The position numbers are program-made. 36,366 nt of DNA from Elusimicrobiales bacterium (lineage in GTDB: Bacteria > Elusimicrobiota > Elusimicrobia > Elusimicrobiales > UBA9959). Each line of letters opens with the position of its first letter. Within the stretch, counting starts at the first letter, position 1. The stretch lies in NCBI GenBank assembly GCA_049972095.1, contig JBMFKQ010000015.1, forward strand, positions 1 to 36,366. The letters are read 5' to 3'. Of the stretch, positions 9,001 to 18,000 are shown one piece after another.

Positions 9001-12000
9001 AAATATCAGAAATAAAAAAAATCTCCTCTTTTTATATAACACCCCCTATGTATTATGTTAACCAGCCATATTTTATAAACTGCGCATTAAAGATAAAAAC
9101 TGACATAGAACCCATACAACTTATAAAAAAAATCCTTCAAATTGAAAAAAATCTTGGAAGAATAAGAACCTTTAAAAATGGGCCAAGAATTATTGATATA
9201 GATATAGTCTATTATGGTAGCAAAGTTATAGACAAAAGCATTCTTCAGATTCCACATCCTAAAAGACTTGAGAGGACATTTGTTTTAAAACCCATAAGCG
9301 ATATAGAACCATCTCTTAAAGATCCCCTTACAAACAAAACAATATCTCAAATGCTCACTAATCTAAACACTCAAGAATTAATAAAACTGCCTGAAAACTA
9401 TAATGAAAGTTTAAAATTCCTCTCATCACTAAAACCAAGAAACAAAAATGATTTCAAAATAGACTATATGAAAGAAACACTTAAAGCAATTGGAAATCCT
9501 CAAGATAAAATAGGTAGAATAATACACATAACAGGTTCTGAAGGAAAAACATCAACCGCAATCTATATATCAAAAATATTACAAAAAAATGGATATAGAA
9601 CAGCCCTTTACACAAGCCCACACATAATTGATATAAGAGAGAGAATAAGATTCAATGGTAAAATGATATCCAAGAAAAATTTTCTCACAACACTGAGATA
9701 CGTTATTTCATCATCACCTCACATACATTCCGCTTTTGAGTATCTTACACTCGTGGCTTTAAAATACTTTTCACAGATATCTGCTGATTTTTCAATCATA
9801 GAGGTAGGCATGGGAGGAGTTAATGATGCAACGAATGTATTTGAAAAGAGCTATTGTGTATTTACTCATATAAGCAATGAGCATTCTAAATATCTTGGCA
9901 GAAGCATCAAAAAAATAGCAGAAAATAAAGCAGGCATAATAAAAGAAAACTCAAAGTGTTTTATATCAAACGCTAACTCAAGAGAGGTTATAAAAATCAT
10001 TGAGAAAAAAGCAAGAGAAAAAAATTGCTATATATATATCCAGCCAGATAAACTTGAATCAGACATCTATTATTCTAATCTTAACCTTGCAAAATGGATA
10101 TGCGAGAGGATACTTTATAGGAGAATAAAATACAAAGATATAAGAATAAAAATTCCTGCACGAAAACAGAAAATAAAATATAAGGGAAGAGAAATCATCC
10201 TTGATGGAGCACACACTCCATATTCCATAAAGAAAATAATGAGCAAAATAAATACAGAAAAATATAGGGTATGTTTGTGTGGATTTATGAGAGATAAAAA
10301 GGTTTACAGATGTCTTGGTGAAATAATAAAAAAAGGATTTAAAAAAATTATAATAACGCAATCACTTTCACCAAGAACAATGAGGGTTGAAGAAATAAAA
10401 ACAAATGAGAGAAAAATAGCTAAAATTAAACTGCTTAAAAAAGCTTTTTCAAAAGCTCTTAAATATGGCAATATCTGTGTTTTAGGAAGCCTTTATCTTT
10501 GTGGCGATATCATTTCCATTATAAAAGGCAAGAAAAGAATCTACCTTAATGAGCTTTACTGAGCTCTCTGTATTTTCTATACACTGATTTTTCTTTTCTT
10601 TCAAAAACCGGCTCCTTTACAGGGAAATCAAAAGATATTGAAAAAAGATGCATATTTCCAAGATCACCCATAGATGTAAAAGCATAATCAACAGAAAGGA
10701 ATCTTATTAATGTCCCAAAACCGAAAGAAAAACCGCCAAGATCATTTCTTGAAGAAAGAGTTGAAAAACCACCTCTCAGAGCAAATGAAAAATCCTCTGC
10801 AATTTTGAGCTTAAGCTCTGAACCCAAGTTGATATAATAACTATCATTTTTAGGCCAGATAAAATCAAAGGCAAAAAGAAGTGAAGGAAAGGGATATACT
10901 GCTGTTGCTATCTTAAATTTCATAGGTATTGGAACTGACTCTATATCGTATCTAAGACCCTTACCAAGATTTTGAATAAGGAATGAAAGTTTATAAGGTA
11001 TATAAGTAAACTTGTAAACATTTATTCCCATATCAAAGGCGGTTGCCTTTGCAGTGTGGTATATCTTAGACTTTATATACTTATATCCTATTCCAATGGT
11101 AACATCAGTTTCTCTGTCTGAAAACTCAGTTATACCTCTTGAATATCCAATCGAAACTACACTATCAGAAGGGGAGAATTTGCCAAGAATGTTCTGATCT
11201 ATATCTGTGTGCTCTATTGTTCCTATATCTGTAGTAAACGCTGATAAAGCTATAACACCATCATAAGATATTCTCTGAGCATATGAGAGAAAATTGTAGT
11301 TTATATCCTCAACATACCTTGATCTTGCAAGAAAGATTGAAAAACTGTTTATCTCCATCAATCCAGCCGGATTTACTGCAATAGAAGAAGCGTCATCTGT
11401 AACAGATACATTAGCTCCACCCATAGCAAGAGCACGAGGATTTATTTCAAGATTCAAAAAATCTCCAGCTGTAATGCCTCTTGCCTTATCATTGAAGTAC
11501 TCAGTTGCACCTAAACTGAAACTAATAAAAATTAAGACAAAAAATACTATCCTCATCTTTCTATTGCCACCTTAAGTGTTTTACTTCCATATGAAGATTT
11601 TATAACACACATATAAACACCGCTTCCAACAGGCTGTCCTTTTGAGTTTTTACCATCCCAGTAAGCTGTGCCACCTGAATTAGCCTTTGTTTCATAAACC
11701 TTTGTCCCACTAAGTGTGTAAAATGTAAGTTTTGAATCATTAGGAAGATTTATGATGGTAATATGCCCCTGCCCAGCTCTATTTGGATAAAAAGGATTTG
11801 GAAAAACCTTTACCCCTGAAAGTGATGTTGCCGGGTTCATTACAATAAGCTGATATATGCTGAAATGGTTTATATAGGATGTTATCTCACCACCTATCCC
11901 TCCCCCCGAAACCTCTGTATTTATCTCTGTTTTAACAGGAAGACACTGACCTGTTTGAGGGTTATATCTTGCAAGTGTAACCCTTGCTTTGTTGGATGAT

Positions 12001-15000: not shown

Positions 15001-18000
15001 TAGAATATCTCAGCATTAGAAAGTGCTGCTGACTGTGTTGTTCTTCCTGATGTGCCACCCGCTATTAAAACAGTTCCGTTAGGAAGAAGTGTCGCTGTAT
15101 GATATGCCCTTGGAACTGTCATTGTTGCAACTACAACCCATTCACCAACATAATCATTGTATAGTTCGCATGTATCAAGAGTTTTTTCTCCATCAGTTCC
15201 ACCACATGCAAGAAGAGAGCCATCTGTTAAAAGAGTTAATGTATGAAATGCTCTTTTATTTTTCATCTTTGGAAAATCAGACCAGTTATCTGAAATAAAG
15301 AATGCATCAGTAAACATATCAATGTTTTGAGAAAAGGTAGTACTACTCCTTGTACATCCCGAAGGATTTACTTCACAATTCTCACCACCAATATAGTAAA
15401 TAGAGTTACTTCTTTGAATCAATGATGTGTGGTTAAGGATTGGTGTAGATAAAATCCCCATATGAGTCGCATCGTTCATATACAGTTCATTTTTCAGTGG
15501 ATAGTATCTTGATATATTTGAAAATATTGCATCTCTAACAACTATTGTTGATGAATCAACAGAAAACTGTTTATCCTCATAAAAATTTATTCGGTCAACT
15601 GTAAAGGACATATCAAAATTTATTTCAGTGAAATTACCATTTATGGAATATGGAAAACTGACATTATGATCGGTTGTGTTTTGAACAAGACCGGATATGT
15701 TTGTGAAGTTAACAGTCGTGTTTACAATTCCATTTGTTCCAATGGAAATATTTGTCATTTCTCCTGTTCCACCATTAAATGTTACCTTAATCTCATTATT
15801 TTCATAAGATGCTCTTTTAAGTGTTACAGTTGCACCTATTATGTTTGCTCCCCAATACTCTTGAGGCATCTGGAAGCTAAGTGTCAGGGTTGCTGTTGTT
15901 GTATCAAAAAGTGATGTGCTTTGTCCAGCTGGAAGTGGATCATCAGCACCTCGGAGACTTGCTGAACCAGTACCATTTTGGGCTTCAATACTCATAGGAT
16001 CAAACAGAACAAATGCCCCAGCACCAGGTCCTTGAAGTGGAACATTGACTCTTTCAAGCCAACCATATCCCCTACTCTCATCACCACCGACAAATACAGT
16101 GTCAAGCGTAGCCGTTGTTATGCCAAGATATACAGATGAGTTTGTAAACTGAACTGTAGGAGAGCCATCAGATTTTGGAGGTATAAACCAGTCAGATTCT
16201 ATTAATCGTCCAATAACATACCTTGAAAGACGAATATCTGGTATCTGAAGATTTATACTTGTGCTTGATATTGAGATTACTCTTTGACCTGTTGGATTAC
16301 TAACCTGAGGATTTGAAAGTGTTAAAAAAGAACGCTGAGAAGCAACAACTTGCGGATTTAGATAGGTAACAGGAATATTCCCCCTTCCACCCACTGTTAT
16401 AACACTTCCATCATTTAAAAGTACAGATGAATGATAAGCCATCCTATAAGGAAAAAGCTCAGATTTAATGCTACCATCTGAACCTGTGTTTATGTTATTT
16501 ATACCAACTGGGGCCCTTGCGCCATTCTGGTCAAACATCTCAACAAGCTCTACATATCCCATTGTAAACTGTCTTTGTTTCTCCTGCACCTTCTCCTCAT
16601 CTAATGAAAAAAGGTCATTACCATTCAGATTTCCGTTTTTGCCACCTATTATTAGGGTGTATCCATTTTGGAGTGTTATTGCTGTATGATATGCCCTTCC
16701 AACAAGAAGTGAGCTTTGAGGAACCATTGAGTTTGTTACAGGGTCATAAAGCTCTGTTGTGAGATGATAGACGTTATTATTTCGATCAAAGCCACCTGCA
16801 ATAAAGACCTTTCCGTTTGGAAGTAGATTTGCTGAATGTCCCTCCCTTGTTGATGTCATCGTTGGTCCAGGTTTGAAAGCGGTTGCTGATGTTATAAATA
16901 TCTCACATGAATTAAGGCTGTTAGAACCATCATATCCACCACATATAAGCACATTTCCTGCATCAGGGCCGTTCTTTAGAAGTGTAGCTGTATGCTCTGC
17001 CCTTGCAGAGATCATACTAACTGTTGTAATGGCTATTGAGCTCACATTATCATAATTGCTAAACGAAATTATATCAGCAGTAGCTAATGGAGTTCCTGTA
17101 GTCCTATAGCCACCTGCAACAAGAATCCTTCCATCAGGTAGAAGGGTCATGGTATGACCATATCTTGGTGATGAAAGAATATTAGGATAGGAATAACGAT
17201 CAGTTCCTATTGAAACACCATATTCATATGAGTAAATAAGATAACAATCATCACTTGCACTATCTGGGTTACTATTATCTCTGCCACCACATACAAGTAT
17301 ATGGGAGTTTGGAAGAAGAACTGCTCTTGAGTCTGCTTGAGGATAAATAAAGCGGGTTGGAAAAAGAAGAAGAAAAATTAAAAAAAGCTTTCTAAAATTT
17401 CCCATCCTACTTTACCTCAAAAAATGAAAAACTCCCATCATCAGTCTTTTTTGCCTTAGGGTCAAGCACCTTTTTACCATCAACAACAAAATAATATTTG
17501 TAAATCCCCTTATCATTCAGAATTAGCTCCTCCTCCCATACCCCGGAAGCTATTTTTTTCATATCTTTTTGCTTCCATACATAAAAGCTTCCGCTAAGTT
17601 TAACACTTTTAGCCCTCTTGTTCTCATAGCGAAGAGTTACCTTGTATTTTTTACTACCTGCAGAAGATGAGGCAGAAACACTCTGGGTTGATGATTCCAT
17701 CTCAGAAGCAGATTGCTGAGGTGAGAGTGAATTTGAATTCGAGGAATTTGGTGGCTCGGTATCCTCTAAAACAGATGAGATGTTATGGGATGCTTGTTGA
17801 GAAACTGCTTTTGAACTATGATGCTTTGGATAGAGATAAAGGTTAAGTTTATCGTATACCTTCTTTACAGAAAAAATAAAAACAGCAAGGGCTATAATTA
17901 AAACAACTGTATATCTTGTTTTCATTTCACATGTCTTAAATAATATCCTTAATTATAACAAAGTTGATAATTCAAATCAACTATTCTTTGAGTGGCTATT

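Follow-up and report, generated by a model that had tools for sequence, protein, structure and literature searches.

To our knowledge, type IX secretion systems (T9SS) have been described so far only for Bacteroidota. In the SprA-PorV system of F. johnsoniae (6H3I, 8GL6), a giant SprA-family barrel is combined with a PorV-family barrel of the FadL type and with type A C-terminal sorting domains (CTDs) that bear a lysine near the C-terminus; the report on this system describes the one conserved residue of type A CTDs as a lysine that binds the PorV backbone in the solved complexes, and the GldLM motor as needed to pull the carrier-cargo complex off SprA (PMC10994853). Type B CTD cargos are reported to be gene-linked to, and dependent on, cognate PorP/SprF barrels, as in SprB-SprF and PG1035-PorP, where the barrel gene follows the cargo gene; in these accounts, the cargo needs a barrel that is specific to it and that anchors it on the surface, and orphan cargos share one carrier (PMC12618676, PMC9143113). 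The CTD of PorZ is described as retained on PorQ in P. gingivalis, and the attachment complex comprises two fixed housekeeping pairs, PorZ-PorQ and PorU-PorV, in which an uncleaved type-A-like CTD is bound to a PorV-family barrel for the A-LPS attachment of other cargo (PMC10202324). Barrels of the FadL family also work as channels for small molecules, FadL itself being a long-chain fatty-acid channel, and one serves as a subunit of BAM; BamG of Bacteroidota is a FadL homologue whose loops hold a surface lipoprotein (PMC12578637).

The window, which is the whole stretch of 36,366 nucleotides analysed here, comes from an uncultured Elusimicrobiales bacterium of the phylum Elusimicrobiota and contains a giant CTD-bearing cargo gene directly followed by the gene of a PorV/PorQ-family barrel. 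We lean towards the reading that this pair and five others in the genome are the cassettes of a type-IX-like system of surface display in reduced form, in which the barrel would serve its cargo as cognate carrier and as anchor at a compact SprA pore.

The cargo gene, its neighbours and its sorting domain

The features of the locus are collected in Table 1. The stop codon TGA of P0001 and the start codon ATG of P0002 overlap as ATGA, and 1 nt separates the end of P0308 from the start of P0001. The best promoter-like site is a consensus match only, and such sites are rarer in the region than in its shuffles; it may mark the start of a three-gene operon (P0308, P0001, P0002). P0308 begins with a membrane anchor or signal sequence, continues in a Ser-rich linker, and ends in a CBM48-like beta-sandwich (PF16561, 29.2 bits; cut-off 26.8). 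Another genus (G010) keeps the same succession of genes (GCH1, the 172-aa gene, cargo, barrel, and convergent folKC), and there the counterpart of P0308 shows 39% identity and the orthologue of P0001 (1945 aa, same synteny) shows 51% identity.

Table 1. Positions of the features of the cargo-barrel locus in the window
Feature	Coordinates	Strand	Description
Cargo P0001	11553..17405	-	1950 aa; Kelch/fn3 protein with C-terminal sorting domain
Barrel P0002	10546..11556	-	336 aa; PorV/PorQ-family 14-strand FadL-type outer-membrane barrel with N-terminal hatch
Cargo CTD, type-A-like T9SS	11556..11846	-	P0001 residues ~1854-1950
P0308	17407..17925	-	172 aa; conserved upstream companion of the cargo-barrel pair
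Best promoter-like site	17952..17980	-	TTGATT-17-TATAAT with TG; located upstream of P0308

P0001 starts with a sequence resembling a signal peptide and contains Kelch beta-propeller repeats in two blocks (Kelch_4, 162.6 bits) and at least three fn3 domains (81.5 bits in 3 stretches); no catalytic domain was recognised in the domain-model scan. Its C-terminus matched the type A sorting domain model TIGR04183 over the cut-off (26.5 bits against 23; residues 1867-1948), consistent with the first-pass annotation, and the best match was the C-terminus of PorZ (NF052228, 55.4 bits, in the C-terminal part of the model). The domain contains the motif PNPF and a near-invariant SG with an invariant Y after it, which in P0001 reads SGVY, together with a near-invariant lysine near the C-terminus, which, by analogy, may be the equivalent of the PorV-binding lysine of the solved complexes. 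In the CTD alignment (A3), W66 and Y81 are invariant, and G50, S78, G79, and K95 are near-invariant.

The shared CTD was clear in 8 proteins of the genome by iterated HMM search of our own ORF set, and the C-terminus of a ninth protein (C24) passed Pfam CHU_C (31.3 bits; cut-off 27). The PorZ and PorU models match the cargos through their CTD parts only, the matches of NF033707 covering model positions 948-1095 alone, which are PorU's own CTD; the profile searches revealed no PorZ body or PorU body. The type B CTD model (TIGR04131) and, in a search that had no true positive control, the PorP/SprF-family barrel model (TIGR03519) gave no match in the genome. In arrangement the pairs resemble the type B/PorP-SprF pairs but are not members of them; the barrels here belong to the PorV/PorQ family, and the CTDs are type-A-like.

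The barrel family and its pairing with cargo genes

P0002 belongs to the PorV/PorQ family both by HMM and by fold, as had been proposed. It matched NF033709 PorV_fam with 136.1 bits (cut-off 90), while the second-best model, PorQ (109.2 bits; cut-off 220), and the PorV equivalog (50 bits; cut-off 250) both stayed below their cut-offs, and its orthologues are already named 'PorV/PorQ family protein' by NCBI. No Pfam match was obtained for P0002, including none to Toluene_X/FadL, POTRA, or ShlB. In the predicted structure (pLDDT 87.6), the hatch of the 14-strand barrel carries an invariant NPA motif, which has a role in FadL. The model was structurally closest to the chains 8gl6_F and 6h3i_F, both PorV of F. 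johnsoniae in its complex with SprA (Foldseek E 5e-13). The margin of PorV (Z 31.4, 21% identity) over FadL (Z 29.5, 12-13% identity) was only about 2 Z units, and BamG followed with Z 24-25; a barrel of 14 strands with a hatch at the N-terminus is common to the model, FadL, and BamG (PMC12578637).

The first-pass annotation had named six cargo-barrel pairs with cargos of 1041-2424 aa, and all six proved real, as did the cargo lengths and, by Pfam, the fn3, Kelch, PQQ, and FlgD_ig domains. The cargo gene lies directly upstream of the barrel gene on the same strand in every pair, with spacings of -4 (C15, the window), +34 (C7), +10 (C12), -4 (C18), -4 (C11), and +3 nt (C24). Given some 9 CTD genes in a set of about 1337 ORFs, chance would place one of them directly upstream of any one barrel in about 0.7% of cases, whereas this was observed for 6 of the 12 barrels, which are paralogues of one family found by iterated HMM search of our own ORF set. 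Pairing within the genome is not strict, as 12 barrels stand against 8-9 CTD proteins; six barrels have no adjacent cargo, and three CTD proteins (a subtilase of 529 aa and two others of 170 and 401 aa) have no adjacent barrel. The carrier sharing reported for orphan cargos of type B systems could explain these three proteins.

Across the order, one barrel gene behind one cargo gene is the kept arrangement: at 26 of 28 evaluable loci from 30 genomes, the gene immediately upstream of the best barrel encodes a CTD protein. The numbers of barrels and CTDs per genome scale at approximately 1:1 (r = 0.96, slope 0.91; 482 barrels and 404 CTDs in total), although genomes within one order are kin and such counts overstate independence; within the window's own family, 8-46 barrels occur per genome. 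Over 29 pairs, the CTD and barrel distances correlated with r = 0.84, which mostly reflects orthologues inherited as units, and co-variation was absent among the six paralogous pairs (r = 0.07, p = 0.40).

Instead of secretion carriers, the barrels might be uptake channels of the FadL type, or factors that, like BamG, assemble or hold; they would then work together with the surface protein, the cargo, for example, capturing what the barrel imports. The FadL-like fold and the NPA motif would suit such a role, as would the loop-held surface lipoprotein of BamG and the paralogue at C1:38444, which is a TraF_2 member beside an ABC-2 transporter. We give this explanation little credence, because the best HMM is PorV_fam, the Toluene_X/FadL model does not match P0002, and the barrel, unlike FadL, is constantly linked to proteins with a T9SS-type CTD in nearly equal numbers; moreover, the cargos hold no recognisable catalytic or substrate-binding enzyme domains that could feed a channel.

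A compact SprA homologue and the other type IX components

No T9SS translocon had been detectable in the first pass, a statement that no longer holds. An ORF of the genome (G000 C28:3633-8885, minus strand) encodes a full-length, divergent, and shortened SprA/Sov homologue of 1750 aa, which matched TIGR04189 with 133 bits (E 6.5e-39), under the equivalog cut-off of 200. In the PDB, the profile of this family matched the SprA chains 6h3i/6h3j only (E 6e-17). A profile of the C-terminal 1150 aa found 764 representatives, and all 14 of the longer ones scanned matched TIGR04189 only, with 4 passing the cut-off; alignment of the SprA-like family with those four proteins by hhalign gave a probability of 100 and E 7e-142 over 1542 columns. 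The divergent SprA of the genome is missed by Pfam and by the NCBI cut-off. A SprA/Sov translocon homologue, a PorV-family barrel, and type A CTD cargo are all present, and the genome looks like the bearer of a stripped-down T9SS. Our literature search found no paper describing the compact SprA and the cargo-barrel pairs of Elusimicrobiota.

SprA-like and PorV-like proteins were each found in 31 of 31 genomes of the order. In a phylum sample of 121 genomes, 113 held both, 4 held PorV-like proteins only (no SprA-like match at E <= 1e-10), 4 held neither, and none held SprA-like proteins only. This distribution bears on autonomous two-partner export, in which each barrel would be the SprA-independent exporter and anchor of the upstream protein, as in TpsB/TpsA or autotransporter-type systems. 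In its strict gene pairing and translational coupling, the arrangement is like a two-partner system, and the four genomes with PorV-like proteins only would fit as well; however, SprA-like proteins accompany PorV-like ones almost throughout the phylum and never occur without them. A 14-strand, hatch-filled barrel without POTRA is also a poor conduit for a multidomain protein of 1950 aa, and TpsB (CdiB) reached a TM of only 0.42 against the P0002 model, with BamA/TamA lower. Autonomous export is accordingly regarded as quite improbable. P0002 itself was rejected as a TpsB, because it is a hatch-plugged FadL-type barrel and not an Omp85-type barrel of 16 strands with POTRA.

Of the other components, GldK, GldL, GldM, and PorU were sought in 31 genomes of the order (25 with a completeness of 90% or more), while the results for GldN and PorP/SprF concern the genome itself; none of these searches had a true positive control, so that a very divergent motor may escape them. 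With no known-motor genome as a positive control, GldM (TIGR03517) was found in 0 of 31 genomes, while GldL (TIGR03513) passed the cut-off in 0 of 31 and gave a single weak match of 21 bits. GldK (TIGR03525), likewise searched without a true positive control, gave no match in the genome itself and none over the cut-off among the 31, the best value of 77 bits against 350 representing a generic domain. PorU (NF033707) was over the cut-off in 0 of 31 genomes and its catalytic part was not found, again without a true positive control. GldN (TIGR03523) had no match in the genome itself, its model having matched nothing anywhere searched. With the caveat of the missing controls, the earlier view that motor and ring genes are not detectable was supported by the searches for GldK, GldL, and GldM in the 31 genomes. 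The claim that the pairs occur without a T9SS core is right only in part: under the same caveat it may stand for GldK/L/M, PorU, and PorP/SprF, but it falls for the SprA-like pore.

A complete T9SS of the ordinary kind, whose genes for motor, ring, and sortase exist but escape notice through divergence or lack of assembly, would agree with the uncontrolled searches and with a SprA so divergent that Pfam and the NCBI cut-off miss it. We consider it unlikely, given zero matches over the cut-off in a set of largely complete genomes, given that the same-library model TIGR04189 did detect the divergent SprA (E 1e-23), and given that the PorU matches end at its CTD part.

Proposed export route and its energy source

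In the favoured reading of a reduced display system, Sec would export the Kelch/fn3 cargo to the periplasm. There the PorV/PorQ-like barrel, whose gene directly follows that of the cargo and is translationally coupled to it, would recognise the CTD. The barrel would then dock on the cell's single compact SprA-type pore (C28), and the cargo would exit through this pore while bound to its own barrel. The CTD is probably not cut off, because no PorU-type sortase is detectable, and the barrel would remain as a non-covalent outer-membrane anchor of the giant protein, as PorQ does for PorZ and SprF-type barrels do for type B cargo in Bacteroidota. Such a route differs from that of F. johnsoniae in that many barrels linked to cargos take the place of one general PorV, and a SprA of ~1750-1900 aa that lies under the NCBI cut-off that of one of 2403 aa, and in that GldLM, GldKN, and PorU were not detected. 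It recalls PorZ-PorQ, whose PorZ CTD best matches that of the window, but it would serve many different giant cargos instead of two housekeeping pairs. The requirement for GldLM in the extraction step of F. johnsoniae speaks against the carrier reading, as no such motor was found here, and the carrier-cargo complex would have to be removed from the pore without it. Other points against it are the incomplete pairing within the genome, the lack of co-variation among the six paralogous pairs, the narrow margin of PorV over FadL, and the four phylum genomes with PorV-like proteins only.

A replacement for GldLM had been suggested in the form of FliF/FliG-MotAB modules headed by TPR-tailed PorV-like barrels, which would power cargo secretion. 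The two TPR-tailed barrels at FliG/MotAB operons are real, and the flagellum genes FlhA and flagellin were absent while controls matched. At six listed places in relatives, a gene for a long barrel (579-632 aa) is located upstream of the FliF/FliG gene at a distance of 2.8-3.6 kb, a contiguous operon in G010 encodes barrel plus TPR, FliG plus TPR, a coiled coil, MotA, and MotB, and some modules adjoin genes of giant CTD proteins. However, none of the six pairs is linked to these operons, and of the 31 genomes of the order only 18 yielded FliG_C (positive controls matched). The 13 genomes without it keep SprA-like proteins and cargo-barrel pairs; they include all 10 genomes of family f2 (98-99% complete) and three genomes of genera g8 and g13. 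A FliG/MotAB motor therefore cannot be the general energiser, and its part in secretion, weakened as a general role while the operons themselves stand, appears improbable.

It is possible, though we hold it only tentatively, that SprA and cargo-dedicated PorV-like carriers form a self-sufficient, phylum-wide module for secretion and display at the outer membrane without the GldLM/GldKN energy chain or a sortase. If so, the T9SS of Bacteroidota may be a later elaboration, in which the motor and gliding were added to an older and simpler pore-and-carrier system. Alternatively, Elusimicrobiota may extract the carrier-cargo complex in another way, for example through the cargo folding outside the cell, through the carrier diffusing laterally, or through a FliG/MotAB rotor that in some lineages acts via the TPR-armed barrel.

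The cargo-barrel cassette of the window and its relatives

The cargo gene of the window (P0001) is followed directly on its 3' side by the gene for a PorV-like barrel (P0002), and the stop codon of the former and the start codon of the latter overlap as ATGA. The cargo begins with a signal-peptide-like segment, its body carries Kelch repeats in two blocks and at least three fn3 domains, and its C-terminal domain exceeded the NCBI cut-off for the type A sorting domain of type IX secretion (T9SS) (TIGR04183, 26.5 bits; cut-off 23). The same domain also scored 55.4 bits against the C-terminal region of the PorZ model. 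The barrel passed the PorV/PorQ family cut-off (NF033709, 136 bits; cut-off 90) with PorQ as the second-best model, and the Pfam search of this protein gave no match. An AlphaFold2 model built from an input alignment of 31 sequences (pLDDT 87.6, pTM 0.82) predicted a FadL-type barrel with an N-terminal hatch. The best PDB matches of the model were the PorV chains of the Flavobacterium johnsoniae translocon, 8gl6_F and 6h3i_F, with Foldseek E values of 5e-13 and 2e-11 and VIA-align Z scores of 31.4 and 31.2, respectively, at 21% identity, compared with 29.5 at 13% identity for FadL and 24-25 for BamG.

The cassette sits between folate-pathway genes, with folP and a folK/folC fusion on one flank and GTP cyclohydrolase I on the other, and the flanks are the same in a related genome from another genus (G010). 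The gene order there is also that of the window: GTP cyclohydrolase I, a 172-aa gene, cargo, barrel and the convergent folK/folC. The counterpart cargo (1945 aa) and barrel were 51% and 69% identical, respectively. The window cassette is old, its gene order being shared across genera. The 172-aa gene ends 1 nt before the cargo start and occupies the same place in the other genus at 39% identity. No third gene was consistently common to all six cargo-barrel pairs of the genome, the 172-aa gene having no equivalent in the other five cassettes, and its product may be a periplasmic helper of the window cassette alone.

The window is contig C15 of a genome of 1.44 Mb in 58 contigs (completeness 96.5%, contamination 0.45%). 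A survey of this genome with an ORF set made for the analysis and iterated HMMs gave 12 barrel paralogues and eight proteins with a clearly common C-terminal sorting domain (CTD); a ninth, on contig C24, passed Pfam CHU_C at its C-terminus. The six cargo-barrel pairs reported in the first-pass annotation were confirmed, the cargo lying upstream on the same strand with a spacing of -4 to +34 nt in all six. The domains of the cargos across the pairs are Kelch, fn3, PQQ/beta-propeller, CarboxypepD_reg and FlgD_ig. Three CTD proteins (a subtilase of 529 aa and two others of 170 and 401 aa) have no adjoining barrel and six barrels have no adjoining cargo; the one-barrel-per-cargo pairing in this genome is not absolute. 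No signal of co-evolution between CTD and barrel was obtained among the six paralogous pairs (r = 0.07, p = 0.40), because these pairs are too diverged for co-variation to be visible, with distances saturated at 62-82%.

Several other genes touch on these families. The subtilase (Peptidase_S8, 142 bits) carries the common CTD and, by analogy with the orphan type B cargos of F. johnsoniae, may be served by one of the six barrels that have no adjoining cargo. On contig C12 the cargo-barrel pair is immediately preceded, on its own strand, by a gene for a 3071-aa protein with fn3, lamin-tail and beta-propeller domains, in which no CTD was detected. A 515-aa barrel paralogue on contig C1 matched Pfam TraF_2 (74 bits) and has an ABC-2 transporter pair downstream, a setting unlike that of the cargo-linked barrels.

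Coordinates of the features. Positions refer to the window unless preceded by G000 (the window's own genome) and a contig; L numbers are locus handles within G000.
Feature	Position	Strand	Remark
folP and folK/folC fusion	8120-10562	+	one flank of the cassette
Barrel P0002	10546-11556	-	336 aa; downstream of cargo
Cargo P0001	11553-17405	-	1950 aa
172-aa protein gene	17407-17925	-	membrane-anchored, Ser-rich linker, CBM48-like domain
GTP cyclohydrolase I	18275-18823	-	other flank of the cassette
DUF6754 protein and three overlapping genes	29436-32990	-	after MotAB
238-aa gene	with MotA and MotB within 33010-35180	-	downstream half of split operon
MotB	33707-34351	-	downstream half of split operon
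MotA	34365-35180	-	downstream half of split operon
Coiled-coil ORF, 5'-open	35408-36364	-	precedes MotA/MotB
PorV-like barrel+TPR and FliG+TPR	G000:C31:1-5011		first genes of split operon
Second module	G000:C23:11613-21883 (L006)		CTD protein (401 aa), two unknown genes, barrel+TPR (572 aa), histidine kinase, MotA, FliF_C/FliG_M/FliG_C fusion (509 aa), 343-aa unknown, MotB
SprA-like gene	G000:C28:3633-8885	-	1750 aa
SprA-like gene with lptF/lptG	G000:C28:3633-11089 (L018)		back to back
3071-aa protein gene	G000:C12:19463-28678 (L003:3464-12679)		upstream of C12 pair
529-aa subtilase	G000:C22:22583-24172 (L013:5584-7173)		CTD, no adjoining barrel
Locus of the 515-aa barrel paralogue	G000:C1:36748-39991 (L009)		barrel matches TraF_2; ABC-2 transporter pair follows

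A compact SprA homologue and its distribution

The first-pass annotation had found no translocon detectable. This did not hold, as a six-frame search with TIGR04189 (SprA/Sov) matched one ORF, on contig C28, and the protein it encodes scored 133 bits (E 6.5e-39) against the model. The SprA-like protein had been overlooked because it falls below the equivalog cut-off of 200 and its Pfam search gave no match. As a single sequence it found nothing in the PDB with phmmer and was visible to profiles and TIGR04189 only. A profile of the protein and 15 relatives (alignment A1) was searched against all PDB sequences, and the sole match was F. johnsoniae SprA (E 6e-17). A profile of its C-terminal 1150 residues found 764 cluster representatives, of which 14 longer ones (1920-2283 aa) were scanned against NCBIfam; TIGR04189 was the sole match in all 14, and its cut-off was passed by four (211-523 bits). 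When A1 was aligned with these four, profile against profile, the probability was 100 and the E value 7e-142 over 1542 columns (A1 positions 121-1765). The ESM Atlas neighbours of the protein were clusters of 1800-1888 aa with SprA_N in 20-75% of members. These profiles indicate that the protein is a full-length, compact SprA homologue; where its relatives are named in public records, they are called hypothetical proteins.

The SprA-like gene occurred in 31/31 genomes of the order (Elusimicrobiales) as one ORF of about 1750-1860 aa, and in the phylum sample in 113 of 121 genomes (52/53 genera), in none of them above the TIGR04189 cut-off. PorV-family barrels were present in all 31 genomes of the order and in 117 of the phylum sample. 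Both were found in 113 of these 121 genomes, barrels only in four, neither in four and the SprA-like gene alone in none; the four genomes with neither all belong to one genus and are 1.0-1.4 Mb in size. Genomes of the window's family each had 8-46 barrels, those of a second family 23-24, and those of a small-genome family 1-4. The best barrel locus of each of 30 genomes was taken; upstream sequence was available for 28, and in 26 of them the barrel gene was immediately preceded by a co-oriented ORF with the CTD at its end. Barrel and CTD counts per genome were correlated (r = 0.96, slope 0.91), in a set where the genomes are kin and the matches are inexact copy numbers.

In this genome the SprA-like gene is back to back with lptF/lptG. 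At 80 related Elusimicrobiota loci, the divergent neighbours included LptF in 67 and LptG in 60, and no downstream neighbour recurred, lptF/lptG alone doing so. This neighbourhood suggests a possible connection to LPS export.

Motor, ring and sortase searches and the FliG/MotAB modules

The remaining T9SS components were sought with curated models and 14 control genomes that lack a T9SS, hence with no true positive control. Under these terms, GldM was found in 0/31 genomes of the order, GldL and GldK were over cut-off in 0/31, and neither GldK nor GldN, PorP/SprF nor the type B CTD was found in the window's genome. Matches to PorU were confined to its CTD part and lay in cargo proteins. These negatives mean not found with curated models, short of proof of absence; by such models, the system appears to have no member of the motor, ring or sortase families.

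The two FliG/MotAB modules headed by a PorV-like barrel with a TPR tail, which had been put forward as a candidate motor, are present in the genome, in which FlhA and flagellin were not found although the positive controls were. One module is broken by the assembly inside the repetitive coiled-coil gene, its downstream half lying at the right end of the window and its first genes on contig C31. The join is supported by G010, where the six operon genes are contiguous, with 72-89% identity to the genes of this genome for five of them and 41% for the coiled-coil gene. After MotAB on the same strand of the window lie a DUF6754 protein gene (430 aa, 368 bits) and three overlapping genes (224, 289 and 243 aa) without a family match, all without a counterpart at that position in G010. 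The FliF-FliG fusion occurred in 17/31 genomes of the order and FliG_C in only 18/31; no FliG_C was found in any of the 10 members of the small-genome family, nor in three genomes of the family to which the window belongs. Because all genomes without FliG_C keep the SprA-like gene and the cargo-barrel pairs, the rotor is at most accessory for part of the lineage and is not a general energiser.

Proposed mechanism and relation to known systems

In F. johnsoniae, PorV is described as docking at the SprA lateral opening, binding the CTD in the pore and exiting with the cargo, with loading energy-free and extraction energy-dependent (PMC10994853). Type B cargos are reported to rely on gene-linked PorP/SprF barrels, which also anchor them (PMC12618676, PMC9143113), and the PorZ CTD to stay bound to PorQ (PMC10202324). 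By analogy, each cargo would have as its cognate carrier the barrel encoded just behind it, and this barrel would act at the single compact SprA pore of the cell; without a sortase, the CTD would probably be kept and the barrel would probably stay as the anchor of its cargo. It is in this sense that we infer the CTD-barrel contact, the pore route, the CTD retention and the energy source.

The SprA family, the PorV family and the type A-like CTD are parts shared with the Bacteroidota T9SS; the motor, ring and sortase of that system were not recognised here. One barrel per cargo is the manner of PorP/SprF with type B CTDs and was known only for these; here PorV-family barrels are used in this manner. 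In NCBI records the barrels already carry the name 'PorV/PorQ family protein'. The literature searched, with subscription journals outside its coverage, gave no description of T9SS-type genes in Elusimicrobiota, nor did passages of PMC12204202, PMC7031533, PMC8542988 and PMC7323717. Reviews confine the T9SS and CTD-bearing proteins to Bacteroidota and hold the energy chain essential for cargo release from SprA (PMC10202324, PMC10994853).

In summary, a compact SprA occurs phylum-wide together with up to dozens of barrels, each tied to one cargo gene, and no motor, ring or sortase was recognised. If this is true, nature would offer here a minimal system in which to learn what SprA can do with a PorV-type carrier alone and how carrier specificity is coded, and to trace the evolution of type IX secretion. 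A conserved protein of 1750-1900 aa, called hypothetical in public records, would also gain a function, and the surface display of the largest proteins of these small genomes would be explained.
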